In this document: piece after piece, positions 2,110-64,000 of the stretch
Numbering within the stretch: the first letter of the stretch is position 1
Layout of the letters: each line of letters begins with the position of its first letter
IMG/VR virus record: IMGVR_UViG_3300020474_002475
Coordinates: 53,940 to 117,939 of that record
Source of the DNA: a virus
DNA: 64,000 bases
Reading direction: 5' to 3' (one strand)
Position numbers and translations under genes: made by a program
The notes under the pieces: generated by a model
What the model saw: only the letters and a program-made list of their open reading frames with translations
The model's database searches: none
Told to the model about the DNA's origin: nothing

Positions 2110-2112
2110 TAG

Positions 2113-2529: not shown

Positions 2530-3532
2530 GACAGATATTAAAAAGAACTTTGGCGACAATATTATACTATCCGGTAATTCGGTTATAGATAAAAAAGTAT
2601 TAAATGTATCAATTAGTCCTTCGCTAGACATAGCATTAAATGGAGGTATTCCAGAAGGAAGTTTTATGATATTGACAGGGCAACCTAAATGTGGTAAAAC
2701 TACAACATCTCTCCAGATTGCTGCTTTAGCACAGCAAAAACAATATGCTTATGGAGATTTTGAAAAGGGTAGAGAAGTGTATTTTCTAAACATTGAAGGT
2801 AGGATTAAGAAAAGAGACTTAGCTGGAATTAAAGGATTAGATTTAGATAGATTTCATATCATAGGCTCTAAGACAGGTAAGATTTTACACGCAGAAGAAT
2901 ATTTGCAGATGGCTGAAAAAATCATTAATGAAGTTCCCGGCTCTGTCGTTATTATAGATTCATATTCAGCTCTATGTACAGAATCAGAGATTACTTCAGA
3001 CATGAGTAAAATGCAAAGAGCAGATGGCGCCAAGCTATTAGCAAAATTTTGCAGGAAAGTAGCTAATGTTATACCTGTTAATAAAAATATTGTTATGGGC
3101 ATCACTCATCTTATGGGAAATCCTGGTTATGGCAGCAGTGAATGGAAAGAAAAATCTGGGCAGGCTATTGCTTATCAAACAGATGTAAAAATAAAAGCTA
3201 CATATTTTAAACCGTGGACAGTCGGAAAAGAAGAAACACAGATTGGACAAACAATAGAATGGCAAGTTGTTTGCTCGGCTTTAGGTCCTCCTGGTGCTAA
3301 AATTACTAGTTATATTAGATATGGACAAGGCATAGACAAAGAGATGGAGCTATTTAATCTTGCAACAGATTTGGGAATTATTGACAAGGCAGGAGCTTGG
3401 TATACATTTACGACAGTTAAAGATAGTCCCAAATTCCAAGGAGCAGAAAAGTCTAGAGATTACTTAGCACAAAATCCTAAACTATATACTTCTTTATGGA
3501 ATACTGTTAAAGAGACAATGGGAATTAAATAA
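2519..3532 (+). CDS. recA: RecA/UvsX-family recombinase
   Basis: SLDIALNGGIPEG, Walker A GQPKCGKTT, Walker B VVIIDS, C-terminal GIIDKAGAWY...KFQG. Confidence 0.93.
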   Translation: MSIKTDIKKNFGDNIILSGNSVIDKKVLNVSISPSLDIALNGGIPEGSFMILTGQPKCGKTTTSLQIAALAQQKQYAYGDFEKGREVYFLNIEGRIKKRDLAGIKGLDLDRFHIIGSKTGKILHAEEYLQMAEKIINEVPGSVVIIDSYSALCTESEITSDMSKMQRADGAKLLAKFCRKVANVIPVNKNIVMGITHLMGNPGYGSSEWKEKSGQAIAYQTDVKIKATYFKPWTVGKEETQIGQTIEWQVVCSALGPPGAKITSYIRYGQGIDKEMELFNLATDLGIIDKAGAWYTFTTVKDSPKFQGAEKSRDYLAQNPKLYTSLWNTVKETMGIK

Positions 3533-3939
3533 TGGATGTGATCGACTTAGATGGCAAAATACAAAAATGGGCTTTAACAGGACATATAGCCAAAGGTAGT
3601 AGGCAGAATAAGTCTACTTTACATTTACAAGCAAGAGATGTTATAAAAAATATCCATCCCACTTTACAACTTTTAGAGGAGGTTTCGATACCTTTAAGGA
3701 GAACTGAAACTTTGTACCTTGACTTTTACTTGCCTTTGACTAAAACATGTATAGAGGTGCATGGCGAACAGCATTATAAATTTGTGCAATTTTATCACAA
3801 TAATACTCTTGGCTTTTTAAAACATAAAAAAAGAGATGCCGAAAAAAAAGAGTGGTGTCAAAAAAACGACATTAGATATATTGAGTTTCCATATAATGAG
3901 TCTGTAGAGGAATGGACCAAAAGGATGACTGATGAGTAA
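3532..3939 (+). CDS. DUF559/Vsr-like PD-(D/E)XK endonuclease
   Basis: LYLDFYLP...IEVHGEQHY...KRDAEKKEWCQKNDIRYIEFPY. Confidence 0.8.
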   Translation: MDVIDLDGKIQKWALTGHIAKGSRQNKSTLHLQARDVIKNIHPTLQLLEEVSIPLRRTETLYLDFYLPLTKTCIEVHGEQHYKFVQFYHNNTLGFLKHKKRDAEKKEWCQKNDIRYIEFPYNESVEEWTKRMTDE

Positions 3940-4417
3940 AACAAGCAAAGAAGAATTACAGCATTGGGATGCGGTTTTAGACGAGTATGAGTCGTCTATA
4001 GGTCTTCCTCCATATCTTGATGATAATATGCCAGCAGAAGAATTAAATTCATATTTAACAATGAATCGTAATGAATTAGAAAAATTGACACCTGATGATT
4101 GTGGAGAAATTGCATACAGATTATCACAATTCTGTTTTCATATACAAAGAACAATTAATAGAGAAATAGCTAGACATAATTGGGCTGATGAAAAAATTAA
4201 AGAAGTTATAGCAGACCAAATTAATAATTACAAAGGTTATGGCTATATTGAAAAATCTTTACAGGCGATTAAACATAATGAAAAGGCTTATTCTTTGAGT
4301 CAGATAAAAAGATATGCTAAACAAAGAATGGATAGACTTTCTTACATAGCAAATACAACAAAAAACTTATCGGATATCATAATTTCTATACAACGAAGTA
4401 AGGTGAAAAATGGGTAA
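3932..4417 (+). CDS. helical hypothetical protein, possibly UvsY-like recombination mediator
   Basis: 161 aa amphipathic-helical ORF two genes after recA/uvsX; function inferred from context only. Confidence 0.5.
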   Translation: MSKTSKEELQHWDAVLDEYESSIGLPPYLDDNMPAEELNSYLTMNRNELEKLTPDDCGEIAYRLSQFCFHIQRTINREIARHNWADEKIKEVIADQINNYKGYGYIEKSLQAIKHNEKAYSLSQIKRYAKQRMDRLSYIANTTKNLSDIIISIQRSKVKNG

Positions 4418-4796
4418 TGTAGATACTGACAAACTAAAACAATTGTTGTATGCAATGATAGAAACATTAGATGGAGAAACATCTGAATCTAGTGAAAAAG
4501 TAGAAGAAACAAAAGATGTAAACTCTAATGCTCAACAACCAAAGAATTCTCGTAGAAAAAGATACGGTGGAGAAGAAAATTTATTTTTAAGCATGCCAGA
4601 AAAAGACATGCATAAGGCAGATGTTGAAATAGATAAAAAACTAGCACCTAAACAGTTAACGGCAAGAAACAGAGTTTCTACAGAAATGGATGTCCGATGT
4701 AGAATTTGCGGCAAAGAGCAGAGGGTAAGCAAATCTTTGATAACTGATGGTGCCCATAGATATAAATGCAATGATTGTTCTAGGAGTTCAGGCTAA
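4410..4796 (+). CDS. hypothetical protein with C-terminal C4 zinc finger
   Basis: CRICG...YKCNDC. Confidence 0.7.
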   Translation: MGNVDTDKLKQLLYAMIETLDGETSESSEKVEETKDVNSNAQQPKNSRRKRYGGEENLFLSMPEKDMHKADVEIDKKLAPKQLTARNRVSTEMDVRCRICGKEQRVSKSLITDGAHRYKCNDCSRSSG

Positions 4797-6262
4797 TGAT
4801 ATTGTGTGATCCTGCAGCAGAACGTGCTGTTCTTAGCACCATTATGCAAAATGGTGACAAATCTTACTTGGAAATTTCTGATATAGTAAATGAATCTACG
4901 TTTACTGTTGATAGCAACCAATATTTGTATCAGTGTTTAAAGCACATTTGCGAACAAAGCTCATGCAGCAATATAGATATTGCTTCTGTATTTTCTGCGG
5001 CTCAAGAACTTGGATTATCTCATTTATTAAACACAAAGTCGGAAGCCCAGCATATTAAAGCAATCAAAGATTTTCCTGTAGAAAAAAGCAATCTTAGGAA
5101 ATTTGGTGCAAAAATTAAAAAATTAGAGATTGCCAGAGATCTACATAAACAGCTTAAAGATACACAAGACAAGATTTTAGACATTAACGGAAATGAAAGC
5201 ATAACTTCTATTTTGGGTATAGCAGAAGATTCGATATTTGATTTTTCTTCTAAGTTAAATGATTCAGAATCTGGACCACAAACAATCGGTGAGAATATTG
5301 AAGACTATGTAAAGTATCTAGAAGAAAATCCCATCGAACAAGTTGGTATTTCTACAGGCTTTCCTGTATATGATAAGTCTATTGGTGGAGGTTTGAGAAA
5401 GAGTACCGTAAATGTTATAGCTGCTAGACCTAAAACTGGTAAAACATTGTTGTCTGACAATATGGGATATTATATAGCAAACACCTTGAATATTCCTGTT
5501 TTAAATATGGACACGGAAATGACTAGAGAGGATCATGTTCATAGATTATTGGCTATGTCAACAGAGATAGAAATGAATCAAATAGAGACAGGTAGGTTCG
5601 CAGAATCTCCTAATCTTAAAAAGAAGATATATGAAAGCGCTAATAAAATTTCTAAGATACCATACTACCATAAAAGCATTGCAGGTAAACCATTCGAAGA
5701 ACAATTAGCGGTAATGAGAAGATGGATAGTTAAAGAAGTAGGCTTAAAACCAGATGGTACAGCTAAAGACTGTGTTGTATTTTACGATTACTTAAAATTA
5801 ATGGATACTCAAGGTATGAGTCAAGATCTAAAAGAGTATCAAGTTTTAGGTTTTATGATGACGCAATTACATAATTTTTCTACTAAATATGGCATTCCTG
5901 TTGTCGCTTTTGTTCAGTTAAATAGAGATGGCATTACAAAAGAGTCGACAGATACGGCAAGCGGTTCTGATAGAATTATCTGGCTATGTAGCAATTTTAC
6001 AATATTTAAAAAGAAAACAGATGAAGAAATTGCAGAAGACGGACCAGACAATGGCAATAGAAAACTAATACCAATTATTAGTCGTCATGGCGGAGGATTA
6101 GACGACAATGATTATATAAACTGTCATATGAAAGGCTGGTGTGCTAAAATTGCTGAAGGTCAAACTAGATTAGAATTAACTTCAGGTGGTAGTAATAACT
6201 TTAAAGATGATGGGTTCATAGTAAATGAAAATGATGAAAATGAAAAAATTGAATTCGTATGA
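4796..6262 (+). CDS. dnaB: replicative DnaB-family (SF4) helicase
   Basis: N-terminal AERAVL, GISTGF, Walker A ARPKTGKT, VFYDYLKLM, QLNR, IISRHG. Confidence 0.95.
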   Translation: MILCDPAAERAVLSTIMQNGDKSYLEISDIVNESTFTVDSNQYLYQCLKHICEQSSCSNIDIASVFSAAQELGLSHLLNTKSEAQHIKAIKDFPVEKSNLRKFGAKIKKLEIARDLHKQLKDTQDKILDINGNESITSILGIAEDSIFDFSSKLNDSESGPQTIGENIEDYVKYLEENPIEQVGISTGFPVYDKSIGGGLRKSTVNVIAARPKTGKTLLSDNMGYYIANTLNIPVLNMDTEMTREDHVHRLLAMSTEIEMNQIETGRFAESPNLKKKIYESANKISKIPYYHKSIAGKPFEEQLAVMRRWIVKEVGLKPDGTAKDCVVFYDYLKLMDTQGMSQDLKEYQVLGFMMTQLHNFSTKYGIPVVAFVQLNRDGITKESTDTASGSDRIIWLCSNFTIFKKKTDEEIAEDGPDNGNRKLIPIISRHGGGLDDNDYINCHMKGWCAKIAEGQTRLELTSGGSNNFKDDGFIVNENDENEKIEFV

Positions 6263-7379
6263 CCAAGCCAAGTTAAAGGCTATGTCAGACAGCTTGTGTG
6301 ATAATATAGAAGAACTATTAGATGTCTTAGATGTTACAGACTACAGGATATCTGATAAAATGGTTATTTGTAGTTGTCCAATACACGGTGGAGATAATCC
6401 GTCTGCATTTAATTTATACCACACTGGAGATAGCTATAGGGGCAATTGGAAATGCAGGACTCACAATTGCGAAGAAATATTTAAACCTTCTATACTGGGT
6501 TTTATTAGAGGATGTCTGTCTAATAAAAAGTATGATTGGTCTTCGAAAGAAGGTCAGGTTTGTACATTTAAAGAAACAATAACTTTTGCTGAACGCTTTT
6601 TAGGCAATAAACTTGATGACATAAAAATATCTAGCAAACAAAAAGAAAAAACTAGCTTTGTTAATGTTGTTAAATATATCAATACAAAAAACGAAGAAGA
6701 AACAAATAAAATACCTAGAAGCACAATTGTCTCGTCTCTAGATATACCATCCAAATACTTTATAGAAAGAGGTTTTTCTAAAGACATTTTACTTAAATAT
6801 GACGTAGGAGACTGCAATACAGCAAGCAAACCTATGTTTGGCAGGGCAGTGGTGCCAGTATATGATCAAGATTATAAATATATGGTTGGATGTACTGGAA
6901 GATCTATAGACAATAAATGTAATAAATGTTCATGTTATCATAAAAGTTCGGAATGTCCACCAGAAGATAAGCAATATCTGCATTCTAAATGGAGACATAA
7001 TTTTGGTTTTAAAACACAAAACCACTTATATAACTACTGGTTTGCAAAAGACCATATAAAGAAAACGGGTAAGGTTATATTAGTAGAAAGTCCCGGTAAT
7101 GTATGGAGACTAGAAGAGGCTGGTATACACAATTCTGTCGCCTTATTTGGTGCTTCATTAGCAGATATACAAAAAATGATTTTAGATATATCTGGAGCAA
7201 TGACTATATATACTATTATGGACAATGATGACGCCGGTAAAAAAGCAGCGGAAAATATATATAAAAAATGTGAAAGAATATACAATGTTCATAACATAGA
7301 GCTTGAACAGGCAGATGTAGCTAGTATGAATGTTGATCAAGTTAAGGACTTTATAAAACCAAGGATAGACCATGACTAA
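6240..7379 (+). CDS. dnaG: DnaG-type DNA primase (CHC2 Zn finger + TOPRIM)
   Basis: CSCPIHGGDNPSA...WKCRTHNC; GRAVVPV; TOPRIM LVESPGNVWRL and MDNDDAG; start could be 6225-6240. Confidence 0.9.
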   Translation: MKKLNSYDQAKLKAMSDSLCDNIEELLDVLDVTDYRISDKMVICSCPIHGGDNPSAFNLYHTGDSYRGNWKCRTHNCEEIFKPSILGFIRGCLSNKKYDWSSKEGQVCTFKETITFAERFLGNKLDDIKISSKQKEKTSFVNVVKYINTKNEEETNKIPRSTIVSSLDIPSKYFIERGFSKDILLKYDVGDCNTASKPMFGRAVVPVYDQDYKYMVGCTGRSIDNKCNKCSCYHKSSECPPEDKQYLHSKWRHNFGFKTQNHLYNYWFAKDHIKKTGKVILVESPGNVWRLEEAGIHNSVALFGASLADIQKMILDISGAMTIYTIMDNDDAGKKAAENIYKKCERIYNVHNIELEQADVASMNVDQVKDFIKPRIDHD

Positions 7380-8097
7380 AATTATAGCATTTTCTGGAAA
7401 AAAACAGTCAGGTAAAAATACCTGTGCAAATTTTATATATTCTACATATATGGCAAATCTTAAAATTAGTAAAAAAATACACATCAATGATCTTGGAGAA
7501 ATAGAAGTATCTGATCTCTTTGGTAAAAAAGAATATTCGGGAATATTTAATCCAGAAAGATATGATTCTACAGATTTTATTTTACAACAAGCACTAACAA
7601 AAGTTAATCCTCATATTAAACTTTATAGCTTTGCTGAACCTCTTAAAACGGATATCTGTATTAATATATTGGGACTAAGCTATGAACAATGTTATGGGTC
7701 GGATAATGATAAAAATTCAATAACAGATTTACAATGGGAAAACAAAAACTTAACAGCTAGAGATGTTATGCAAATTGTTGGTACAGACATTTTACGAAAA
7801 ATGAAACCAGATGTTTGGACTAGCGCACTAATAAGAAAAATCAAAAGCGATAACCCCAATCTAGCCATTATTACAGATTGTAGATTTCCTAACGAAGTTG
7901 ATTGCATACAAGACAATGAAGGTGTTGTTATTCGTTTAACAAGAAGTACTAGTGATTCTCAACATAGCAGTGAAACTATCCTAGATAGGAACAATTATGC
8001 GTGGGACAATTTTGACTATGTACTCGATAATAACAATTTGGATATATATAATCAGTCTTTGTCAATAGAAAAAATACTAAAAGAGGTGTTATCATAA
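7372..8097 (+). CDS. deoxynucleoside monophosphate kinase (T4 gp1-like)
   Basis: IIAFSGKKQSGKNT, SFAEPLK, TARDVMQIVGTD, IITDCRFPNE, HSSE. Confidence 0.88.
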   Translation: MTKIIAFSGKKQSGKNTCANFIYSTYMANLKISKKIHINDLGEIEVSDLFGKKEYSGIFNPERYDSTDFILQQALTKVNPHIKLYSFAEPLKTDICINILGLSYEQCYGSDNDKNSITDLQWENKNLTARDVMQIVGTDILRKMKPDVWTSALIRKIKSDNPNLAIITDCRFPNEVDCIQDNEGVVIRLTRSTSDSQHSSETILDRNNYAWDNFDYVLDNNNLDIYNQSLSIEKILKEVLS

Positions 8098-9143
8098 TTA
8101 TTACATATTTTCGTAGTTCTAGCTATAACACACACAATATGTGTGAACAACAATATCTATTTGATTATGTTCTTGGCTATAGATCTCCGTCTAATAAAAA
8201 AGCAGACAAAGGTACAATTGTACACAAAATATTGGAAATATTAGCTTTTGTTAAATTTACCATACAAAAAAATGAACAAACATTTGAAGATGATATTTTG
8301 GGTAAAATCAATGTTTATAATTATGATTTAGACGATATTATTGATAGAGTCTATAATTTTTACACATCGCACTTTACACATCATGAATGGAAAGATGTGG
8401 ACCATAGAGATTGTAAAAAATGGAGTTATAAAGCGATAGAATATGCAGGAGGTATGTTTGATCCTAGAAATAGAACCATCTTATATCCAGAACAAAGATT
8501 TGATATAACAATTGAAAAGCCTTGGGCAGAGTATGAATATGAATTGCCTAGCGGAGAAAAACTAAAAGGACACCTATCTATTAAGGGTACTATCGATTTA
8601 ATTACCAAACCAAGTGACAATACATTAGAAATCGTCGACTGGAAAACAGGGAGAAGACTTGACTGGGCTACAGGACAAGAAAAAACTCAAGAAAAACTAG
8701 AAACAGATCCGCAGCTTATGATATACTATTATGCTGCTCAAAAACTCTATCCTGAAATAGATCATTGTATCGTAACGATATACTTCATTAATGATGGTGG
8801 TCCTTTTAGTATGACATTCGACAAATCGCATTTACAAAAAACGGAAGACTTACTAAGAGAAAAATTTTATAAAATTAAACAATCCAATAAACCTCGACTA
8901 TCTAAAACTTGGAAATGTAGAAAATTGTGTCATTATGGTAAAAATACTTTTCAAGGACATGATAGTATATTGCCGATGCTTGAATATAGAGAAGGTCAAG
9001 TATGTAATCCGGGATATAATATGACGATGTGCGAACAAGTAGCTCATGACATAAAAACTAAAGGTTTAAAAAATGTTGTTGACGAATACACTGTTCCAGG
9101 GTATAATGTAGGACATTACCAAGCTCCTGGAAGTACAGAATGA
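8094..9143 (+). CDS. PD-(D/E)XK exonuclease (RecB/Cas4-like); probable ATA start
   Basis: RSSSYNTHNMCEQQYLFDYVLG, GTIVHKILE, GTIDLI, IVDWKTG, QLMIY, CRKLC. The conserved N-terminal motif lies upstream of the first ATG (8139); SD AGAGGTG precedes ATA 8094. Confidence 0.85.
   Translation: MIITYFRSSSYNTHNMCEQQYLFDYVLGYRSPSNKKADKGTIVHKILEILAFVKFTIQKNEQTFEDDILGKINVYNYDLDDIIDRVYNFYTSHFTHHEWKDVDHRDCKKWSYKAIEYAGGMFDPRNRTILYPEQRFDITIEKPWAEYEYELPSGEKLKGHLSIKGTIDLITKPSDNTLEIVDWKTGRRLDWATGQEKTQEKLETDPQLMIYYYAAQKLYPEIDHCIVTIYFINDGGPFSMTFDKSHLQKTEDLLREKFYKIKQSNKPRLSKTWKCRKLCHYGKNTFQGHDSILPMLEYREGQVCNPGYNMTMCEQVAHDIKTKGLKNVVDEYTVPGYNVGHYQAPGSTE
9079..9107 (+). promoter_or_regulatory. sigma70-like promoter for the polymerase operon
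   Basis: TTGACG-N17-TATAAT, 32 nt upstream of the dnaE-N start. Confidence 0.7.
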
Positions 9144-11014
9144 AAAATTATATTCCATTACATGTTCACAGTCATTATTCTCTATTAGATGGCTTATCTA
9201 AGCCCGAACAAATAGCAAATAGATGCAATAAGATTGGAGTAAATAGCTGTGCTATTACAGACCATGGCTCTATCTCCGGTGCAGTACAAATGTATTCAGC
9301 ACTTAAAGCTAAAAATATAAAGCCTATATTAGGCTGTGAACTGTATTTGGCGTTTAACGACTCCTGTATAAAAACAAAAGAGAATATAAAATTAACTCAC
9401 TTTCTTGTTTTGGCCAAGAACTTAGAAGGTTGGAAAAATTTAATAAAAATAGTTTCTACGTCCAACAGCGAAGAAAACTACTACAGAAAACCTAGACTTT
9501 CTATAGATAAACTTAAAGAACTAGTTACTGGCAAAAATTTAATTAGTTTTTGTGGTCACATGGGATCTTATTTGCCAGATTTAATAGAACAGCATCCAGA
9601 TAATTATAAAAAACATTGCCTAAATTTTATAGACGAGATGAAAGATATTTTTGGTAAAGAAAATTTCTTTTTAGAATCTCAGCTTATGGACAAAGAGTAT
9701 ATGCCTAAGCAGATAGAGCTTTCTGATATAATGAGAGACCTATCGTCTTTATCAAATACCAAAGTCTTAGCGACCCCCGATGCTCATTACGCAGAGCAAG
9801 AGGATGCTATAGATCAAAGAATTCTATTATGCAATAATATTAAAACAACCCTCACTAATATTAACAAAAAAATTATTAATGAAGAAAGTGTTCCTTTTGA
9901 TTGTTTCTTTAAGTCTGATAAGTATTATATTTTATCTCCAGAAGAGATGAATGAATTACATAAAGAAGAAGAAATAGAAAACACACAACTGGTAGATAGT
10001 ATGTGTGAAGAGTATGATATTTTAAATAAGCCCTTATTGCCTCCATTTAGATGTCCTAATGGTCAAAATCCAGATGAGTATTTAAGACAATTATGTAGAA
10101 ATGGATGGAAAGAAAAAATAGCAAATAATATACCAAAAGAAAAACATGAAATGTATACTGATAGAATTAAAAAAGAATTAGAAGTTTTACAAGGTGCTGA
10201 CTTGTCTAGTTACTTTTTGATAGTGTCTGATATAGTAAATCATGTCAGGTCCAATGGCTGGCTTCCTGGTCCAGGCAGAGGCTCGGCTGCTGGGTGCTTG
10301 GTGTCATATTTAATTGGTATTACATCTATTGATCCTATACAATACGGATTGATTTTTGAAAGATTTTATAATTCTGGCAGAAATACAGAAGGTAGAGTTT
10401 CTATGCCAGATATCGATGTAGACGTACCTATTAATAAAAGAGAAAACATCATTTCATATATTCGACAAAGATATGGTAGTGACAAAGTTTCTCAGATGAT
10501 TACTTTTAATACCATGAAAGGTCGTGGCGCATTAAAAGAAGTTCTGCGTGTTTATGGCAATATCAGTTTTGACGAAATGAATCAAATTACTAAATTTATT
10601 CCTGATGAGGCCAAAATAGCAGATGAACTACAAGAAATGAAAGCAGATCATGGGGAAGCATCAATTATTAGATGGGCATTAGAAAACAATGCAGATAAAT
10701 TAAAAGATTGGTGCCACATTTCACAAGATGGCAAAAACAGATTGTCAGGACCACTTGCCAAAAGGTTTGAGCAGGCTATTAGATTAGAGGGCACTAAATC
10801 AAACCAGTCTAAGCATGCCGCCGGTGTAGTTATTAGTAGTCACAATTTGAGTGATATATGTCCGATGATTTACGATACTAAAAACAAAACCACTATAGCG
10901 GGTATGGAGATGCAAGATTTAGAATCCATAGGTATAATCAAATTTGATATTTTGGGAGTAGCTATGCTAGATAAAGTAATGTCCATATCCGATATTTTAT
11001 TAAATGGAGAATAA
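9140..11014 (+). CDS. dnaE: DNA polymerase III alpha, N-terminal subunit (PHP + palm + thumb)
   Basis: LHVHSHYSLLDG, ITDHG, GPGRGSAAG, FERF, MPDIDVD, HAAGVVI, KFDILG, then a stop shortly after. Confidence 0.95.
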   Translation: MKNYIPLHVHSHYSLLDGLSKPEQIANRCNKIGVNSCAITDHGSISGAVQMYSALKAKNIKPILGCELYLAFNDSCIKTKENIKLTHFLVLAKNLEGWKNLIKIVSTSNSEENYYRKPRLSIDKLKELVTGKNLISFCGHMGSYLPDLIEQHPDNYKKHCLNFIDEMKDIFGKENFFLESQLMDKEYMPKQIELSDIMRDLSSLSNTKVLATPDAHYAEQEDAIDQRILLCNNIKTTLTNINKKIINEESVPFDCFFKSDKYYILSPEEMNELHKEEEIENTQLVDSMCEEYDILNKPLLPPFRCPNGQNPDEYLRQLCRNGWKEKIANNIPKEKHEMYTDRIKKELEVLQGADLSSYFLIVSDIVNHVRSNGWLPGPGRGSAAGCLVSYLIGITSIDPIQYGLIFERFYNSGRNTEGRVSMPDIDVDVPINKRENIISYIRQRYGSDKVSQMITFNTMKGRGALKEVLRVYGNISFDEMNQITKFIPDEAKIADELQEMKADHGEASIIRWALENNADKLKDWCHISQDGKNRLSGPLAKRFEQAIRLEGTKSNQSKHAAGVVISSHNLSDICPMIYDTKNKTTIAGMEMQDLESIGIIKFDILGVAMLDKVMSISDILLNGE

Positions 11015-11018
11015 TAAA

Positions 11019-11198
11019 ATGCAAAAAGAATTTAAAGAAGTAAATGTCAATGAAACTTTTAGTGTAAACGGTAAACAATATGTTAAAGTTAACCCAGTTA
11101 AAGTTAGCTGTTGCCGTAGTGTAAACTGTCACGCTGTTAACAGTCCAAAGGATAGGACGTTTTTACAGCCCAACTCGAAGGTAGAGGTGCAAGATTAA
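11019..11198 (+). CDS. small beta-rich Cys-containing protein inside the split-dnaE locus
   Basis: GGAGA SD 8 nt before ATG 11019 (alternative start 11004); SCCRSVNC motif. Confidence 0.65.
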   Translation: MQKEFKEVNVNETFSVNGKQYVKVNPVKVSCCRSVNCHAVNSPKDRTFLQPNSKVEVQD

Positions 11199-11895
11199 TA
11201 GGAATAAGATTTGTGTATTTGACTTGGAAACTGACGGCGTCAATCCAGAAGTTTGCAGTCCTGTACAAATTGCTGCGGTTATTGTGGATCCTTTGAAATT
11301 AGAAATCGTACCAGACTCCGAGTTTAATATTACTCTTAAGCCGGAGTCCCTGGAACAAAATCCTGAATATTGCTATGATGATTCTGATGTTTTAGATTTT
11401 CATGCAAAAGTTAGAGGGGTAAGCAAGGCTAAGATTTTAGAATCTTGGAAGAAATACCAAAAACAGGATCAAGCATGGAAGATGCTTACTAGCTATTTAC
11501 AAATGTATCATACTAGATCAACTAAAAAGAATTGTTTTAGTGCTCCGATTGCTGCTGGTTATAATATTAATAAATTTGATTTACCAATTATCAACAGACT
11601 TAGCAGTAAATATAAAACAGTAAACAAAGAAGGAAAGACCGATTTGTTTTATCCCAGAGATGTTTTAGATATAATGAATGTAATATTTTATTGGTTCGAA
11701 AACAATAATGAACTAAAAAGTTATACATTAGATAATCTGAGAGACTATTTAGGCTTATCAAAAGAAAATGCTCATGACGCACTAAAAGATGTGCAAGATA
11801 CTGCTCAAATAATGATAAGGTTTATGAAACTGTTTAGAAGTATGTCGCCAAAAATTAAATTTAAGGATTCATTTAATAGTACTGCAAATGTCTGA
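11194..11895 (+). CDS. dnaQ: DEDDh 3'-5' exonuclease (DnaQ/epsilon-like); probable ATT start
   Basis: ExoI ICVFDLETDG, ExoII AGYNINKFD, ExoIII HDALKDV. ExoI begins upstream of the TTG called at 11224. Confidence 0.88.
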   Translation: MNRNKICVFDLETDGVNPEVCSPVQIAAVIVDPLKLEIVPDSEFNITLKPESLEQNPEYCYDDSDVLDFHAKVRGVSKAKILESWKKYQKQDQAWKMLTSYLQMYHTRSTKKNCFSAPIAAGYNINKFDLPIINRLSSKYKTVNKEGKTDLFYPRDVLDIMNVIFYWFENNNELKSYTLDNLRDYLGLSKENAHDALKDVQDTAQIMIRFMKLFRSMSPKIKFKDSFNSTANV

Positions 11896-13513
11896 ATATT
11901 ACACTTTTGATTGTGGTTGTAAATTTAAAATACTTGGGAATAGTAAAGAATTTCCTAGTATAGATTTTAAACCGACTTTAGATAATTTAAATTTAGAATG
12001 TTCTAAAACTTGGGACTTAATATCTTCTGGCAATACCAAAGGATGTTTTCAATTAGAGTCTAGACTTGGTCAAACCATGTCAAAAAAACTTAAACCCAGA
12101 AGTATTGAACATTTGTCTGGATTAATCAGTATTCTTCGTCCAGGATGTCTTGAAGCAGTTAGGGATGGTAAAACTGTATCTAATCATTATATAGACAAGA
12201 AGAATGATCAAGAAACTGTAGATTATTATCATCCTGTTTTAAAAGAATGTCTTGAGAAAAGCTATGGCGAAATGATCTATCAAGAACAAGCTATGGAAAT
12301 TGCAAGAGTAGTTTCTGGATTTAATCTGGAAGAAGCAGACATATTAAGAAAAGCAATTGGTAAGAAAAAAGCGGATTTGATGTCTCAGGTAAAGACTTCA
12401 TTTATGGCAGGTGCAACCAAAATGGGTTTAGTAAATAAAGAAACCGCTGAAGAAATTTTTGGTTGGATTGAAAAGAGTCAAAGATATTCTTTTAATAAAA
12501 GCCATGCCGTTAGCTACGCTATGAACGCATATCTCTCTGCATACTCTAAGGCTCACTTCCCCAGAGTATTCTTTGCTTCATATCTTAAATTCGCTAAAGA
12601 TAAAATAGACCCTCAACAAGAAATAAAAGAGCTGGTACGTAATGCTAACGAAATGGATATAACCATCCATACTCCCGATATTAGAGAGCTAAATGAACTC
12701 TTTGCAATTAGACAAGGTAAAATATATTTTGGACTAACCGATATAAAAGGTTTAGGTCAATCTGTATTTAAAAAATTATTAAAGATTGTTGAAAATGATA
12801 ATATAGATATCGGCAAATTATCATGGTATCAAATGCTATATAAGATATTATGTAATATAAATAGCACTGCTACCAAAGCCCTTATTGCATCAGGAGCATT
12901 AGATTATTTCAAAAAAACTCGCACAGAAATGCTATTTGAGTATGATATATTTACATCTCTTACTAAGAAGGAAATCGAAAAAGCAGGAGATATTATAGAA
13001 AACGGAGCAGTTCCTTTAATCAGCATATTAACAGAATTATTAACTAAAAGAGTTAATATAAAAAGACAAGCTATAATAAATAATCTTATAGAAACTATCA
13101 AGCACCCCCCTTATTCTCTTATTGATAAAATAGAATGGCTATCAGATTCAGAAAATACTTTGTTAGGAACATCGATAACTTGCTGTAAATTAGACTCATA
13201 TAATATAGATATGACTAATATGAACTGTAAAGACTTCAAGAAAACATATAAGGTAGAAGATATCATATTGGCTGCCGAAGTGGTTGGGGTTAATGTAACC
13301 AAAACTAAAAATGGTAAAAACCCAGGTGCTGAAATGGCATTTGTTACAGGAGAAGATCAATACGGGATGTTAGATTCAATTATTATGTTTCCAGAAACAT
13401 GGGAAAAATACAGACCTCACGTTTTTGATGGTAATGTTTTAATATTCACGGGCAAAAAGTCAAAAGCAAAAGACAGTCTAATAGTAGAAAAATGCTTTGT
13501 TCCTAAGTCTTGA
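11888..13513 (+). CDS. dnaE: DNA polymerase III alpha, C-terminal subunit (fingers + HhH + OB fold)
   Basis: GCFQLES, SILRPG, IYQEQAM, ADILRKAIGKKK, YSFNKSHAVSY, FGLTDIKGLG, GALD, OB fold EMAFVTGED. Confidence 0.95.
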   Translation: MSEYYTFDCGCKFKILGNSKEFPSIDFKPTLDNLNLECSKTWDLISSGNTKGCFQLESRLGQTMSKKLKPRSIEHLSGLISILRPGCLEAVRDGKTVSNHYIDKKNDQETVDYYHPVLKECLEKSYGEMIYQEQAMEIARVVSGFNLEEADILRKAIGKKKADLMSQVKTSFMAGATKMGLVNKETAEEIFGWIEKSQRYSFNKSHAVSYAMNAYLSAYSKAHFPRVFFASYLKFAKDKIDPQQEIKELVRNANEMDITIHTPDIRELNELFAIRQGKIYFGLTDIKGLGQSVFKKLLKIVENDNIDIGKLSWYQMLYKILCNINSTATKALIASGALDYFKKTRTEMLFEYDIFTSLTKKEIEKAGDIIENGAVPLISILTELLTKRVNIKRQAIINNLIETIKHPPYSLIDKIEWLSDSENTLLGTSITCCKLDSYNIDMTNMNCKDFKKTYKVEDIILAAEVVGVNVTKTKNGKNPGAEMAFVTGEDQYGMLDSIIMFPETWEKYRPHVFDGNVLIFTGKKSKAKDSLIVEKCFVPKS

Positions 13514-13537
13514 CTTTTGCTGAGTACGACATATAAT
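13510..13537 (+). promoter_or_regulatory. sigma70-like promoter for ssb
   Basis: TTGACT-N16-TATAAT followed by an AAGGAG SD before ATG 13586. Confidence 0.65.
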
Positions 13538-13585
13538 AAACTAGTGTTTGGTTTTGGATTTTTAATTTTAAATAAGGAGTTTTCA

Positions 13586-13957
13586 ATGAATCTTGTAATT
13601 TTAAGAGGTAATTTAGCTAGAGACCCAGAAGTTCGCAGAGTGAATACTGGCGGAAAAGAAACCGCTGTAGTGAATTTCACCGTAGCTACTTCTCGTGAAT
13701 ACACGAAGTCTAATGGCGAGAAGGATAAGGTTACTTCTTTTATTAATTGTGAAGCATGGGATACCGGTGCTGAAATCATCGGTGAATCTTTTTCTAAGGG
13801 AGATCTAGTAATGGTAGAAGGATCTTTACGAAATGATTCCTGGGAAAAAGATGGAGTTAAACACAATAGCTTCAAGGTTAGAGTAAATAATTTCTCTAAG
13901 CTTACCAAGCTTTCTAGACATAAGGCAGCTAGCAAAGAAGAGCCTGTTGCATTCTAA
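13586..13957 (+). CDS. ssb: single-stranded DNA-binding protein
   Basis: MNLVILRGNLARDPE...FINCEAWD...KGDLVMVEGSL; short tail EEPVAF; strong SD. Confidence 0.95.
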   Translation: MNLVILRGNLARDPEVRRVNTGGKETAVVNFTVATSREYTKSNGEKDKVTSFINCEAWDTGAEIIGESFSKGDLVMVEGSLRNDSWEKDGVKHNSFKVRVNNFSKLTKLSRHKAASKEEPVAF

Positions 13958-13976
13958 TTATTAGGAATCTTATGAG

Positions 13977-14007
13977 CAAAGGGGCTTCACGGCCCCTTTG
14001 TATTTTT
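13977..14007 (+). terminator. rho-independent terminator after ssb
   Basis: CAAAGGGGC-TTCACG-GCCCCTTTG perfect 9-bp stem followed by TATTTTT. Confidence 0.85.
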
Positions 14008-14009
14008 AT

Positions 14010-15656
14010 ATGAACAAGTTAAAAGTATTAATGTGCTCGGAAGCTAGCTTTTTAAATTCTGGCTTTTCTATATACGCCAAAGAAATATTATCTCGGCTAT
14101 ACGCGACAGGTAAATATGAAATAGCCGAATTTGCTAGTTACGCTGTTGTTAACGACCCTAAAGACAAAGACATACCTTGGTCAATATATGCAAATGCTGT
14201 TAATAATGCAGATCCTAGACATGCCGAATATACTTCTAGAACAGATAATATGTTTGGTAGGTGGCGTTTTGATAAAACCGTTGTAGATTTTAAACCCGAT
14301 GTTGTAATAGATGTTAGGGATTACTGGATGTCTGCTTATCAGGAGCAATCACCAGCTAGAAAATTGTTTCATTGGATATTAATGCCTACAGTAGATTCTG
14401 CTCCACAACAACCGCATTGGATAGATACTTTCTTAAATGCAGATGCGATTTTTACGTATTCGGATTGGGGGGCTGATGTACTAAAAAATCAATCAGGAGG
14501 AAAAATAAATTATATAGACACGGCATCTCCTGGTGTTGATTTGTCTGTTTTTAAAATTAAAGACAAACAAGAGTGCAGAAAAGCAATCGGAGTACCGTCT
14601 GATGCAATAGTAATAGGTTCGGTCATGAGGAATCAAAAAAGAAAACTAATACCAGAATTATTTGTTTCTTTTAAAAAGCTGTTAGATAAATATAAAAAGT
14701 CTAATAATCCACTTGGAGAAAAACTTTTCCTTTATTTGCATACTAGCTTTCCTGATGCTGGGTGGGATATTCCAGAATCAATGAAAGAAAACGGAATTTT
14801 AAATAAAGTTCTGTTTACACAAATTTGTAGAAAATGCAACCATGTTTCATGTGGAGTCTTTCGTGGTCCACAAACGGTGTGTCCTAAATGCTTTACTAGG
14901 AATCAGACATTTCCAAATGTTACTGCCGGTGTAACATCTGAGCAATTATCTACTATCTATAATACTTTTGATATGTATGTGCAGTATGCTATATGTGAAG
15001 GCTTTGGCATGCCGCAAGTAGAAGCTGGAGCTTGTGGTATACCTATAGCTACAGTTGATTATAGTGCGATGTGTGACGTGATAAATAAATTAAACGCATA
15101 TCCTGTAGAAATTAAAACATATTTTAAAGAATTAGAAACTAGAGCCATTAGGGTTTATCCAAACAATGACAGCTTGATATCCACTATAGATAAGTTTATT
15201 AACATGCCTGAACCTATACAATACAAAAAACGTCTTAATACTAGAAAATTAACAGAAAAACATTATAATTGGGACAATATAGCTAAAAAGTGGGAAAAAT
15301 ATTTGGACAGTTTAAATGATAGTGGTTATAGGGCCGATTGGAGTCATCACAAACGAATTAATAAGATAGCTAATGCGGAAGCAAATAGTAATGTGGATGC
15401 ATTAATATCTGTATGTCGTGATAATTTGTTAGATATAAACGCTGCGTCATCTAGTAAAATGTTATCATATTTAAATGACGCTGATTACGGTTTTCAACTT
15501 AATGGCTTAAGCACAAACCCTTTTGATATGAATAAGGTTGCTGAACAAATGAATATATATGTTAGCAATAATAATCAGTTGTGTGATGCTTTAGATAATA
15601 AATTAGCCCTAACAGAAGACTTTATACAATACGCAAAACTAAAAGCAAATAATTAA
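14010..15656 (+). CDS. GT4-family (GT-B) glycosyltransferase with zinc-ribbon insert
   Basis: RNQKRK, EGFGMPQVEAGACG (EX7E motif), YNWDNIAKKW; CRKC...CPKC insertion. Confidence 0.88.
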   Translation: MNKLKVLMCSEASFLNSGFSIYAKEILSRLYATGKYEIAEFASYAVVNDPKDKDIPWSIYANAVNNADPRHAEYTSRTDNMFGRWRFDKTVVDFKPDVVIDVRDYWMSAYQEQSPARKLFHWILMPTVDSAPQQPHWIDTFLNADAIFTYSDWGADVLKNQSGGKINYIDTASPGVDLSVFKIKDKQECRKAIGVPSDAIVIGSVMRNQKRKLIPELFVSFKKLLDKYKKSNNPLGEKLFLYLHTSFPDAGWDIPESMKENGILNKVLFTQICRKCNHVSCGVFRGPQTVCPKCFTRNQTFPNVTAGVTSEQLSTIYNTFDMYVQYAICEGFGMPQVEAGACGIPIATVDYSAMCDVINKLNAYPVEIKTYFKELETRAIRVYPNNDSLISTIDKFINMPEPIQYKKRLNTRKLTEKHYNWDNIAKKWEKYLDSLNDSGYRADWSHHKRINKIANAEANSNVDALISVCRDNLLDINAASSSKMLSYLNDADYGFQLNGLSTNPFDMNKVAEQMNIYVSNNNQLCDALDNKLALTEDFIQYAKLKANN

Positions 15657-15659
15657 TTA

Positions 15660-16619
15660 ATGAATATACTATATATAGGACCATTTCAAAAAAATAATTC
15701 TTTAGGTTATGTCTCTTCTATAATTTTAGAGAAACTATGTCATTTATCTCAGCATAAAATATATGCCCATCCTATATACTCAGGTTATGATAATCACAAA
15801 CTATCTAGTTTACCATATTTAAGATTTGCAGACTTAATTGATTATCCTGATATCAATATACAGCATTGTACAATAAATAGTTTATATATTGATCAAAAAA
15901 GCAAAAATTACTTTATACCAATTCATCCTATGAATTTAAATATACCTAAACAATATTATGAAAAACTAAAGTGTCTAGATAAAATTTTAGTCCATAGCGA
16001 TTTTGAGCTAGATAAATTTTTAAATATAGGTATACAATCTGAAAAATTGGTAAAATTAGAATTACCTAAAATTGAAAGTAGTCCAGCAAAGTTATCATTA
16101 GGCATTTATGATAGCTATAAAAAATATTATTTTATTGGAGACTATTCTAATAATAAAAACATTATTGAGAAACTTATTAAAAACTTTCTAGTAGTGTCAA
16201 AACACCAAAGAGACACGTGTCTTGTGATTGCTTCTGAATGTGACGCTCAACAAAAACAAGACTTAATTAAGTTTTACGAAAAACAAAAAGAAAATATTAT
16301 GGTAAGCAATTACGAAGATAGGGTCTTACTGTTAGTAGACGACGTTGGCTGTGACAGGGTACAGGGGCTGCATAATTGTGCAGATATTTATCTTTGTATT
16401 AATGATGGTCATTACCCTTTAACTGATGCTTCAATGGCTAATTTATCAGACAATATCATTATTAATTACCCTACTGAAGGTTTAGATTCTGAACACATAC
16501 ATAATTCAGTAATTAGCTCTATTAGCAATAATAAAATTATTGACATTCTAAAAAATATTGGAAACAATAATATATCACAAAAATATAAAACAACTAAGTG
16601 GCAAGAGGTTCTATGTTAG
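15660..16619 (+). CDS. divergent GT-B glycosyltransferase-like protein
   Basis: MNILYIGP start, YYFIGDYSNNKNIIEKLIK, LHNCADIYL; canonical EX7E not clear. Confidence 0.55.
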   Translation: MNILYIGPFQKNNSLGYVSSIILEKLCHLSQHKIYAHPIYSGYDNHKLSSLPYLRFADLIDYPDINIQHCTINSLYIDQKSKNYFIPIHPMNLNIPKQYYEKLKCLDKILVHSDFELDKFLNIGIQSEKLVKLELPKIESSPAKLSLGIYDSYKKYYFIGDYSNNKNIIEKLIKNFLVVSKHQRDTCLVIASECDAQQKQDLIKFYEKQKENIMVSNYEDRVLLLVDDVGCDRVQGLHNCADIYLCINDGHYPLTDASMANLSDNIIINYPTEGLDSEHIHNSVISSISNNKIIDILKNIGNNNISQKYKTTKWQEVLC

Positions 16620-17446
16620 ATACAGAATGGTCTACAGGTAATATATTTCAAAAAGCTAGATCAAAATCACAATCTTATACGACTAATGTCCTGTATGAAT
16701 CATATTATAATATATTTGATCAATTACTACAACAGGCGATACCCGATATCTGTTTTGTTCATAAAAATGTAAATAACTCTTTTTTTAACTTTGACTTTAC
16801 TAGTAATAATTCTATATTTATATCACCATCAGAAATTAATAATATATACAACACTTATACAGACTTGGTGATATTTAATCATGAAGATGTGTCAAACATG
16901 AAAAAAGAAGATAAAGCTATTTTGAACCATAACGTCAAAAATGTCAAAGTAATAAATTTTAACAGTAAATCAAATTCAATATTTGCAAATGCTTTAAACA
17001 TAGAATATCCATTTCCGAACCTGTCTTGTAATGTTGACAGGATTAAAGATTTATTGATAATAGATACAAAGCAACATCCTTTTAGCCAAAGCGTACTAGA
17101 ATATGCTAAATTACAAGGCATATCTGCTGACCTTATAAAGAAAGTGGATGCTAATATATCTGAGCTATATACTCAATTCTCTCAATATAAAATTATATTG
17201 GACACATCTCAAAGAATTAATCATATATTGGCATTATTAGCAGGTTGTCATGTAATTACACAATCTAACATAGATGGATATTTCGAAAGCAAATATACAT
17301 TTAAATTTAATGACCACAATGAAATTTTAACTATAATTAAAAAATGTCTATCAAAAGAGACAAAATATCATACAGAAATAGCTGACAGATATTCGTCTAA
17401 AGATTTTAGCAAGAAATTTAAGGAATATATTTATGGAAATAATTAA
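16613..17446 (+). CDS. divergent glycosyltransferase-like protein
   Basis: GAGGT SD before ATG 16613; C-terminal LALLAGCHVIT...RYSSKDFSKKF resembles a GT-B C-domain. Confidence 0.45.
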   Translation: MLDTEWSTGNIFQKARSKSQSYTTNVLYESYYNIFDQLLQQAIPDICFVHKNVNNSFFNFDFTSNNSIFISPSEINNIYNTYTDLVIFNHEDVSNMKKEDKAILNHNVKNVKVINFNSKSNSIFANALNIEYPFPNLSCNVDRIKDLLIIDTKQHPFSQSVLEYAKLQGISADLIKKVDANISELYTQFSQYKIILDTSQRINHILALLAGCHVITQSNIDGYFESKYTFKFNDHNEILTIIKKCLSKETKYHTEIADRYSSKDFSKKFKEYIYGNN

Positions 17447-17846
17447 TATATGTTATGACAAAAATTTTACTTCGGAAGGTTTATCTAATTGTGATATTAG
17501 AAATCTTGATAGCATACCGAACTTTTCTGCACATAAAATCATAATGTCGTTTTTAAACCAATTAGAAAAAAAACAAAGCTTAGATATTATAGAAGGTTTA
17601 TGTAAAAAACTCAGACAGGGAGGGACGCTAACTTTTAATCTGTTAGATTTCGATCAGCTTATTAACTTTTATCAAAATCAAAAAATAAAATTAGACGATA
17701 TTATTATACATACTAACGGTATACAGTGTTTTATTAGCAGGGCTGAAGTTATAAAAATGTTCCATAAAAATTCACAAATGTCTTTAGATAGTATATTATA
17801 TGATGACATATATTCCATTTGTACCGTTTCTAGGAAATCTCTATGA
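17433..17846 (+). CDS. class I SAM methyltransferase-like protein (short/degenerate)
   Basis: DIRNLDSIPNFSAHKI...LCKKLRQGGTLTFNLLDF resembles post-I/II/III MTase motifs; no clear GxGxG. Confidence 0.5.
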   Translation: MEIINICYDKNFTSEGLSNCDIRNLDSIPNFSAHKIIMSFLNQLEKKQSLDIIEGLCKKLRQGGTLTFNLLDFDQLINFYQNQKIKLDDIIIHTNGIQCFISRAEVIKMFHKNSQMSLDSILYDDIYSICTVSRKSL

Positions 17847-18577
17847 ATACTATATGTAAAAGATGTCTTTTTGTAAATCCATCCCCTAGTGAAAAATGTT
17901 TTTTTAATATACCTACTTTACTCAAAAAGTCTGACTATTCTATTAGAGATACAGACGGGTATAATGTAATAGAAAACTACGATTGTTCTTATGCTTTTTC
18001 AAAAGAGCATTATGAAAAACATAAAGAAGAACTACCAGAAAATATGATCGAGCTTATTCAAGAGAAAAATAGGCTTGATTACTACTTGATCATTTCCTTT
18101 GACGATGAAGACAACAATGCAATTATCTCCGAGTGTGATAAAATATCAACACTACACACTATGCCTACGAAAATATCTGTACTTTGCAAAACAGATAAAA
18201 TTAAACCTCTTATACAATATTTCAAAACCCATAAAATATATAAAGACATTGATTGGAAATTGCATAATTTAACAGAAGACTATACAGATGTAGACAAACT
18301 AAAAGATATTTTAAATGTAAATTTAATTAAGACGGTGAATAATATTTGGTATGTACATAGCAGATCTTTAGAAGCCATAACAGAAGATTTAAATTATATT
18401 AATTTTTTAAGCAAAGTAATGAAACCTGAATATCCGGCTATAAGAAAAAACGACGAGAATTTGGACGGGCTGTTTATATCTTCAAACAATCTGAAATTGA
18501 TAAAAAACGAGCACGATCAAGAATATGTAGATTTTTTACAAGAGAATTGTACTCTTGTTAGAAAGTACTATGAGTAA
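17843..18577 (+). CDS. hypothetical protein in the glycosylation cluster
   Basis: 244 aa ORF with ATGA coupling; N-terminal CxxC. Confidence 0.6.
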   Translation: MNTICKRCLFVNPSPSEKCFFNIPTLLKKSDYSIRDTDGYNVIENYDCSYAFSKEHYEKHKEELPENMIELIQEKNRLDYYLIISFDDEDNNAIISECDKISTLHTMPTKISVLCKTDKIKPLIQYFKTHKIYKDIDWKLHNLTEDYTDVDKLKDILNVNLIKTVNNIWYVHSRSLEAITEDLNYINFLSKVMKPEYPAIRKNDENLDGLFISSNNLKLIKNEHDQEYVDFLQENCTLVRKYYE

Positions 18578-63999: not shown

Positions 64000-64000
64000 A
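63776..64000 (-). repeat. 24-bp (PPSPPPIV) and 15-bp (SPPPV) perfect tandem repeats
   Basis: attggcggtggcgaaggaggcact x3 at 63776-63847; ggcggaggactaact x4 plus a partial copy at 63929-64000. Confidence 0.9.

Follow-up and report, generated by a model that had tools for sequence, protein, structure and literature searches.

A DnaE-type DNA polymerase encoded by two genes on either side of an exonuclease gene in an uncultured marine phage

We analysed a stretch of viral DNA of 64,000 nucleotides (the window), positions 53,940 to 117,939 of the IMG/VR record IMGVR_UViG_3300020474_002475, which carries between its positions 9140 and 13513 a family C (DnaE-type) DNA polymerase laid out as two genes, DnaE-N and DnaE-C, with a small open reading frame (the mini ORF) and a DEDDh exonuclease gene between them. 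We are confident that this C-family enzyme, made from two genes, is the only recognisable DNA polymerase of the phage. There are equally good grounds to think that its two pieces are translated separately and most likely form a non-covalent complex, with the exonuclease as the likely proofreader. Family C polymerases, the replicases of bacteria, have to our knowledge been regarded as single chains, with the intein-spliced DnaE of cyanobacteria as the exception. In an abundant radiation of marine and freshwater phages, the active site would be built by two polypeptides, with the cut between palm and fingers and the gene of the proofreader lying in the break.

Results

Two genes that sum to one DnaE

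The locus comprises four genes, given here in window coordinates.

9140–11014, plus strand: DnaE-N, 624 amino acids (aa), with PHP domain, palm (D424, D426, D603) and thumb
11019–11198, plus strand: mini ORF, 59 aa (64 aa from ATG 11004), with a match to phrog_2183 (E = 1e-5), an invariant SCC and a modelled SH3-like barrel
11194–11895, plus strand: DEDDh (DnaQ-like) 3'-5' exonuclease gene, 233 aa, Pfam RNase_T, inferred start ATT
11888–13513, plus strand: DnaE-C, 541 aa, with leader, fingers, HhH and an OB-like C-terminal β domain

DnaE-N ends 18 residues past the motif KFDILG. Pfam assigns its residues 7–181 to the PHP domain (PF02811, E = 2.6e-36) and residues 313–606 to a complete DNA_pol3_alpha domain (PF07733, profile positions 1–260 of 260). 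The catalytic aspartates D424 and D426 (MPDIDVD) and D603 (KFD) are invariant in the 31 DnaE-N sequences aligned, and these segments align with MPDIDTD and KMDFLG of the Taq enzyme. The ORF calls, Pfam and this alignment agree with the initial annotation of the stretch, made by a reader of its letters, which had put the end of the protein and all three aspartates at these places. DnaE-C begins with MSEYYTFDCGC, carries FQLES at residues 54–58 and an uninterrupted RYSFNKSH at 199–206, and is matched by DNA_pol3_finger (PF17657, residues 30–178) and by HHH_6 (PF14579). The OB domain family PF01336 is precomputed on some of its relatives, and its predicted structure has five β-strands at residues 459–537, a C-terminal β domain.

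When aligned with Taq polymerase III α, DnaE-N extends up to residue 625 (E = 6e-81) and DnaE-C starts from residue 645 (E = 2.4e-47). PHROGs holds one DnaE profile of 1190 positions, on which DnaE-N covers 41–611 and DnaE-C 622–1074. Together the halves measure 1165 aa, and as judged from these alignments they sum to exactly one DnaE, without duplicated or missing parts. By the same comparisons, the break is the linker leading from palm to fingers, after the last palm element with the third catalytic aspartate. The reading frame does not continue from one half to the other: DnaE-N terminates in two consecutive TAA codons (final stop at 11012–11014), DnaE-C has a new start at 11888, and this is the case in all 96 distinct relatives described below. 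In current annotation, each half is called 'DNA polymerase III subunit alpha'.

The record from which the window is taken is linear, measures 117,939 bp and has a CheckV completeness of ~83%; the window is its last 64 kb. No other DNA polymerase was found in the ORFs called on the 118-kb record (of at least 70 aa in the window and at least 90 aa elsewhere), and in particular none of family A or B. Neither a clamp nor a clamp loader was found among the called ORFs of this ~83% complete record.

DnaE-C opens with a leader of ~30 residues, the presence of which ahead of FQLES had been noticed on first inspection and is confirmed by the ORF. Within it, C9-G10-C11, F13, F27, C38, T41 and W42 are invariant; all 75 distinct C halves have the CxC, and 74 of them CxxTW. 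The leader was modelled as three short strands (pLDDT 72–79). Its CxC part of ~22 residues has no counterpart in the unsplit relatives P0011, P0009, P0034, P0008, P0050 and P0077, and is thus a new terminal tail on a fragment, missing from unsplit homologues.

Among the PHP residues of the 31 aligned N halves, D17, H42, E67, H87, H140, D214 and H216 are invariant, and H8 and H10 are nearly so. We take these nine positions to be metal ligands; all nine are occupied in the window's DnaE-N, and a second, PHP-based proofreading activity in this protein is therefore possible. In seven distinct relatives, the DnaE-N frame is closed by an in-frame stop directly behind the HVHS motif of the PHP domain (locus coordinates 4094 in L034, 6022 in L039, L051 and L073, 6019 in L057, 6016 in L072, and 3277 in L134). 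This stop is TAA, followed immediately by GTG, in six of the seven and TAG followed by AGA in L073, so that an ORF of 12–14 codons comes before the remainder of DnaE-N, with the first two PHP histidines detached or lost. In L070, L097, L128 and L136, the start of DnaE-N is replaced (..RPFL(S/G)ESHYSLLDG) and lacks the HxH motif, which suggests that the PHP metal site has been lost in lineages that retain the DEDDh exonuclease.

An exonuclease gene in the break

The presence of an exonuclease gene and of an ORF of 59–64 aa between the halves, also part of the initial annotation, was confirmed for both. Residues D10, E12, D129, H194 and D199 of the exonuclease are invariant in 31 sequences and make up the DEDDh pattern (DxE of Exo I, D of Exo II, Hx4D of Exo III); Pfam recognises the protein as RNase_T (E = 9e-10). 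Its nearest solved relatives by profile are the PolC-type exonuclease domain (2P1J, E = 4.9e-6) and exonuclease I, with E-values ranging from 5e-6 to 5e-5. Among isolate phages, the best matches came from Bacteroides DAC phages and Chryseobacterium phage MA9V-3, at 24–29% identity and with no DnaE adjoining. No protein of 409–2000 aa matched the exonuclease at E ≤ 1e-5, which is weak evidence against fused forms. The C-terminal tail, of the type K(I/V)KFKGSF, is conserved; it also occurs in distant loci, and is kept there by every lineage whose locus extends to the end of this gene.

A mechanical ORF call starts the gene at TTG 11224 and thereby cuts off the catalytic D10. The upstream stretches of 93 distinct relatives were searched by script for the homologous start, which lies some ten codons upstream and is ATG in 86 of them. 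It is ATG also in L131, where the script gave a TTG further up, and GTG in one relative. In five sequences, those of the window and its four closest relatives, the homologous codon is ATT, positioned 4 nt past (G/A)GAGGTG, and the codons that follow change synonymously; in the window itself, ATT 11194 lies 4 nt past AGAGGTG. From the homology of the start site and the Shine–Dalgarno site, we infer that the exonuclease starts at ATT 11194. A start of this kind is mis-called when annotation permits ATG, GTG and TTG only.

The mini ORF

The 59-aa form of the mini ORF, from ATG 11019, is the one that aligns in relatives. PHROGs leaves the function of the matching family, phrog_2183, unassigned, and Pfam has no family for the protein. 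The motif SCC is invariant in all 62 distinct copies. The protein was modelled as a five-stranded all-β barrel (pLDDT 94.6), the fold neighbours of which are domain I of EF-P/eIF5A and other SH3-, KOW- and Tudor-like barrels; these similarities are generic (Foldseek E ≥ 0.05, best Z = 4.9), and no specific family could be named from the fold searches. Matches in the ESM Atlas are confined to viral hypothetical clusters, and tblastn returned none at E ≤ 1 among 50,697 isolate-phage records. The mini ORF was not detected in the distant lineages L170–L172 and L177–L178, nor in the other two with N at 38–52% identity (L174 and L175). Its place in distant lineages is taken by other small ORFs, by a uracil-DNA-glycosylase-like gene, or by nothing.

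Theta is a helical bundle, and in terms of fold the theta-like reading that the initial annotation had considered for the small ORF is not supported: the model is all-β with five strands, Pfam offers no family for the protein, and the ORF goes undetected in distant lineages that keep DnaE-N, exonuclease and DnaE-C. A related proposal is that the 59-aa protein serves as a functional counterpart of theta, binding or stabilising the exonuclease. The mini ORF does lie immediately in front of the exonuclease gene, with which it overlaps, and it is under purifying selection with its SCC intact in every distinct copy. Since neither the SH3/KOW-like barrel nor the failure to detect the ORF in L170–L172 and L177–L178 agrees with such a role, we regard it as unlikely. 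As far as the model can tell, a lineage-specific accessory protein with an SH3-like fold is the most likely assignment.

Conservation and phylogeny of the split

All 160 IMG/VR loci fetched with either half hold the same gene string, at 57–84% identity. After duplicates had been collapsed, 96 distinct stretches spanning the end of DnaE-N to the start of DnaE-C remained, and every one of them has the split point, as well as the exonuclease between the halves. The mini ORF is detectable by tblastn in 85 of the 96. The gap from N to C measures 864–1012 nt, apart from one of 1598 nt in L070. In this locus, an ORF of 231 aa resembling HNH endonucleases (7881–8576) sits between DnaE-N and the mini ORF, and the break region is therefore also a landing site for mobile endonuclease genes.

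The order N, exonuclease, C is kept in eight distant loci that hold both halves (L167–L170, L174, L175, L177 and L178; N 38–70% identical). It is likewise found in the lineages in which N is 38–52% identical (L170–L172, L174, L175, L177 and L178), wherever the locus reaches far enough. The CxC leader is kept in the distant lineages that reach the start of the C piece, with the exception of L175.

To extend the comparison to proteins, DnaE-N was scanned with HMMER against 1.84 billion representatives of clusters at 50% identity. Among the best 150 matches (38–67% identity), 142 are N-only and end within 25 residues of the same point, some of them with internal inteins; six run on into the fingers and two have another tail. 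When DnaE-C was used in a word-index search, 3198 clusters came up at E ≤ 1e-20. The best 120 of these are all stand-alone, 117 of them measuring 539–543 aa and three, which hold an intein, 788–802 aa, and none of the 120 carries an exonuclease (RNase_T) domain. The matches of both halves in isolate phages reach at most 35% identity and are mostly single-chain. By these counts, the two-piece form is the common one in this phage radiation, and the statement in the initial annotation that DnaE is normally one chain therefore needs a qualifier.

Trees were computed with FastTree (120 rows, leaving out 29 N-only proteins outside 560–700 aa and the two with other tails) and with IQ-TREE in quick mode (40 rows, chosen by the analyst). 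The six single-chain relatives form two well-supported clades nested among split forms. Forcing them into one clade cost 64.5 log-likelihood units (approximately unbiased test, p = 0.034), for a group named after the tree had been seen and on an unrooted tree. For these two reasons, a history of one split and two re-fusions is a reading of the sequences and not a result. For the unsplit relative P0011, no locus was found in viral contigs and only a 31% match (L176) in metagenome contigs; for P0127, likewise unsplit, no locus was obtained.

Search for inteins and introns

No HINT or intein family of Pfam was found in either half at E ≤ 0.01, and termini with Cys, Ser or Thr plus HN do not occur at the break. 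Intein-bearing relatives are flagged by PF14890, so that inteins are detectable in this family, and inteins or split inteins are visible in the relatives P0008, P0009 and P0034. The DnaE proteins P0008 and P0034, single-chain at the palm/fingers site, end in the N-fragment of a split intein right after RYSFNK/A, the cyanobacterial split-DnaE site. The break in the window is not of this cyanobacterial type: YSFNKSH is whole within DnaE-C, and the break lies ~230 residues upstream of it. Both the lack of intein termini and the uninterrupted YSFNKSH, as read at first sight, have therefore stood.

Rfam gave no match with E below 0.6 in 8000–15000, a weak negative, as Rfam is also blank on an interruption of DnaE-N in the relative L110. 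There (2126–5119), a LAGLIDADG ORF of 283 aa cuts DnaE-N exactly before MPDIDVD and yields a three-piece DnaE in which Rfam sees no intron; the same locus has a LAGLIDADG intein in its PD-(D/E)XK nuclease (141–2129; 662 aa versus 334). DnaE-N of L175 is cut by a LAGLIDADG ORF as in L110 (4998–7849). Contigs from two metatranscriptome libraries run unbroken across 10592–11423 and 11513–12033. A spliced messenger joining the halves had been named as a possible refutation of the split; no joint skipping 11015–11887 was seen in the contigs of two RNA-library runs, which may derive from DNA. The contig comparison also returned short joints with sides of 20–29 letters, which were rejected as splicing and do not coincide with gene borders.

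Selection and integrity of the assembly

Ratios of nonsynonymous to synonymous substitution (dN/dS) were calculated by the NG86 method for the window together with the four relatives nearest to it. Synonymous sites are saturated in most pairs, and with this restriction the values are 0.02–0.09 for DnaE-N, 0.08–0.30 for the mini ORF, 0.006–0.046 for the exonuclease and 0.02–0.08 for DnaE-C. The unsaturated pair L001/L002 gives 0.023, 0.153, 0.006 and 0.023, respectively. All four genes are under purifying selection, and relaxed selection on the halves, another refutation foreseen at the outset, is not what we find. Taken separately, the last 28 codons of DnaE-N have a dN/dS of 0.05 and the first 30 codons of DnaE-C of 0.15–0.28. 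The new termini are therefore constrained coding sequence, and not remnants of an intron or intein.

Near-identical DNA is present in 17 sequencing runs. The stretch is found, whole or in part, in 20 entries from 11 studies; it may itself derive from two of the runs. Marine metagenome contigs of other studies bridge the junction from DnaE-N over the mini ORF to the exonuclease at 10930–11403 (0 differences) and that from the exonuclease to DnaE-C at 11653–13006 (2 differences) and 11160–14000 (4 differences). Because both junctions are bridged in this way, misassembly is excluded; independent assemblies carry the split.

The surrounding gene string

Every gene between 58 and 22110 of the window lies on the plus strand, in a replication block. 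A RecA/UvsX-like recombinase, a DnaB-type helicase, a primase and a deoxynucleoside monophosphate kinase are followed by the PD-(D/E)XK nuclease, the four-gene locus and the gene of the single-stranded DNA-binding protein (SSB). The elements flanking the locus are as follows.

8139–9143, plus strand: PD-(D/E)XK nuclease gene, Pfam PDDEXK_1 (E = 8.5e-17), a conserved neighbour upstream of DnaE-N in related loci
9079–9107, plus strand: promoter-like site TTGACG-N17-TATAAT, 11/12 consensus positions, within the coding sequence of the upstream gene
13583–13957, plus strand: SSB gene, conserved downstream neighbour, Pfam match from residue 24 of the mechanical ORF
13976–14001, plus strand: terminator-like hairpin and T run, 11 pairs of which 6 GC, 3' of the SSB gene

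The string is tightly packed in the order nuclease, DnaE-N, mini ORF, exonuclease, DnaE-C, SSB. The stop of the nuclease gene overlaps the start of DnaE-N (ATGA), ATG 11019 of the mini ORF lies 5 nt past DnaE-N with GGAG upstream, the exonuclease frame overlaps the stop of the mini ORF, and the ATG of DnaE-C overlaps the exonuclease gene by 8 nt. The string is probably translationally coupled. The mechanical ORF of SSB starts at TTG 13517, and ATG 13583 is its residue 24, where the Pfam match begins. The hairpin at 13976–14001 is likely to be the end of the transcription unit.

The promoter announced in the initial annotation exists as a site at 9079–9107 but could not be upheld as a conserved feature of the locus. 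At least 10 of its 12 positions are kept in 20 of 80 distinct relatives, namely where the (V/I)DEY..PGY codons are kept, and promoter-like sites occur in 1–20000 at the frequency of shuffled sequence (112 found, 112.7 ± 12.6 in shuffles). A second such site, TTGACT-N16-TATAAT (11/12), lies at 13510–13537, in the 70-nt gap before the likely ATG of SSB.

Three ORFs resembling homing endonucleases (HNH and others) are spread across the replication block (58–420, 3532–3939 and 20303–21106). The minus strand of 22117–63846 holds very large ORFs (2512, 2118, 2210, 1149, 1029, 1018 and 930 aa), most of them without a family match; a few have PHROG matches of tail-fibre or protease-like kind. Four copies of a 15-nt unit stand at the end of the record (window ~63940–64000) and a related repeat coding for proline and serine at its start (positions 1–60); the contig probably broke inside a repetitive gene. 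Elsewhere in the record, a DUF1559 protein bearing a pilin-like methylation motif at its N terminus (19399–20331) and an ORF of 2687 aa with a cyclophilin domain (2430–10493) sit amid many glycosyltransferase and methyltransferase genes. DUF1559 is typical of Planctomycetota, and may be a hint to the host.

Discussion

Proposed working of the two-piece polymerase

We propose that DnaE-N (PHP, palm, thumb) and DnaE-C (fingers, HhH, OB-like domain) are translated as separate polypeptides from the packed gene string, and that its coupled genes would supply them in near-equal amounts. The pieces would associate non-covalently, the aspartate triad of N and the fingers of C forming one active site. 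In C-family structures, the palm triad needs the fingers for dNTP binding. On account of this established fold, palm and fingers might be expected to close over primer-template and dNTP as they do in single-chain α. The exonuclease is the likely proofreading partner and may be tethered by its KFKGSF-type tail, and the CxC leader could act as an assembly tail, after the model of Aeh1 NrdA. Conservation of the pieces and the known C-family fold suggest the assembly of palm and fingers in trans; polymerase activity, a role in proofreading and tethering by the tail are part of the same proposal.

A prediction of the complex (N residues 400–624, C residues 1–250, exonuclease and mini protein) had a score of 0.00 and a mark of 0.32, and speaks neither for nor against binding. 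Several points weigh against the account given above. Rfam did not flag the endonuclease-bearing interruption of DnaE-N in L110, which makes its negative on the window a weak one, and contigs of RNA libraries that may derive from DNA cannot prove transcripts. The record being ~83% complete, its missing part could hold another polymerase or a clamp. Finally, initiation of the exonuclease at ATT is deduced solely from homology and a Shine–Dalgarno site.

The halves might instead be rejoined into a single working chain, either by a self-splicing intron around the inner ORFs or by a protein-splicing element that escaped recognition. Such elements are frequent in the relatives, as the inteins and split inteins of P0008, P0009 and P0034 and the LAGLIDADG ORFs in DnaE-N of L110 and L175 testify, and Rfam can miss introns. 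Yet the break shows no HINT family, no Cys, Ser or Thr plus HN termini and no Rfam intron; purifying selection has preserved the protein sequence of both the N tail and the C leader; the junctions overlap like those of coupled genes, the inner genes are conserved genes of cellular type over 38–84% identity, and the RNA-library contigs are unspliced across both junctions. We give this explanation a very low probability. Lower still is the one we assign to a disrupted or decaying gene, or a fault of assembly, in a phage that relies on the host polymerase; on sequence grounds this explanation is refuted. It would fit the lack of a clamp and clamp loader in the record, which is incomplete, but hardly the dN/dS of 0.02–0.09 in both halves, the invariant catalytic residues, a break point shared by 142 of the 150 nearest clusters, or contigs of other studies that match with 0–4 differences.

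The pieces might also work apart: N could, for instance, serve as a PHP nuclease or a nucleotidyltransferase module, and C as a factor that binds DNA. Their association is a proposal, and parts of N evolve independently, some relatives having lost the first two PHP histidines or acquired the in-frame stop after HVHS. On every locus that reaches both, however, N and C occur together in one order; they add up to exactly one DnaE; and the palm triad, as noted above, depends on the fingers. We therefore consider separate functions quite improbable, and retain the two-piece polymerase that assembles without splicing.

We offer, as a possibility that we rate as doubtful, a wider scheme in which the split, with the exonuclease gene caught in it, has a single origin at the root of a very large radiation of aquatic phages and the single-chain forms are secondary re-fusions, the leader and the N tail being an assembly module left by an insertion, possibly metal-binding, and the exonuclease docking by its KFKGSF tail. 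If this scheme were true, the result would be a three-piece core of polymerase and proofreader, of a kind not described for family C. The two-piece enzyme provides a natural test of how palm and fingers of polymerase III α hold together and supplies structural and engineering studies with a C-family enzyme that is already split, and its gene order can mark a large group of uncultured phages.

Comparison with known systems

Split A-family polymerases reportedly exist in marine phages. In the literature, supplements not being covered, we came across no full-length DnaE that is divided between palm and fingers with an exonuclease gene in the gap (the supplement of Iyer et al. 2021 could have related split proteins in its tables); the parts consulted of PMC12926913, PMC10674732, PMC3201878 and 10.64898/2026.04.03.716430 hold nothing on such an arrangement. 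Single-chain DnaE or polymerase III α (Taq 2HPI/3E0D, E. coli 2HNH/5FKU) has the same domains in the same order (PHP, palm, thumb, fingers, HhH, OB). The phage enzyme differs in consisting of two polypeptides, in the ~22 extra residues of the CxC leader on C, in the exonuclease gene inside the locus, and in a C piece without the region that follows the OB domain.

Cyanobacterial and 'fractured' metagenomic DnaE are made as split-intein halves and trans-spliced, and, from what we consulted of the report, a homing endonuclease gene lies between the fractured halves (Dassa et al. 2009, PMC2677866). The phage locus resembles these in having two genes and, like the fractured loci, a gene between them. 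It differs in lacking any HINT signature and in its break point, with YSFNKSH intact, whereas its relatives P0008 and P0034 are of the intein type at YSFNK|C.

Another comparison is with phage replicative polymerases of family B that, according to the sections consulted, are made in two separately translated pieces with no splicing. The split gp43 of Aeromonas phages 25 and 44RR is one; in phage 25, gp43A co-purifies with gp43B and the two polymerise DNA (Edgell et al. 2010, PMC2988022). The other is PhiKZ, for which the structure of a 1:1 complex of DNAP-N and DNAP-C has been described (Basu et al. 2026 preprint, PMC13648687). In contrast to both, the present enzyme belongs to family C, is broken in a different fold, and has an exonuclease gene between its pieces, which those accounts, as far as consulted, do not have. 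NrdA of phage Aeh1, by the part of the report available to us, was split by insertion of the mobile endonuclease gene mobE, and its assembly requires the new tails at the break (Crona et al. 2011, PMC3045599). By analogy, our locus would also be an essential enzyme fragmented by an insertion and bearing new tails, for which a role in assembly is proposed; the insert is the exonuclease and small ORF and not mobE. A homing endonuclease gene between the halves, of the type of Aeh1 nrdA or phage 25 gene 43, is not found at the locus, although one relative, L070, has the extra HNH-like ORF there.

Within family C, the portions consulted of Iyer et al. (2021, PMC7824862) describe for group 2.2 jumbo phages a minimal polymerase III α, split into distant genes and present alongside a family B polymerase. 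The two systems share an intein-free C-family catalytic module made as N- and C-terminal proteins. Unlike the minimal version, described there as core catalytic and template-binding parts only, the enzyme reported here has PHP, HhH and OB domains, its genes are adjacent, and no other polymerase was found with it. In its overall make-up, it is reminiscent of the E. coli polymerase III core of alpha, epsilon and theta, in that a C-family polymerase is accompanied by a DEDDh exonuclease on a chain of its own and by a third, small protein; it departs from that core in having alpha in two pieces, a small protein of another fold, and an exonuclease that is only distantly related.

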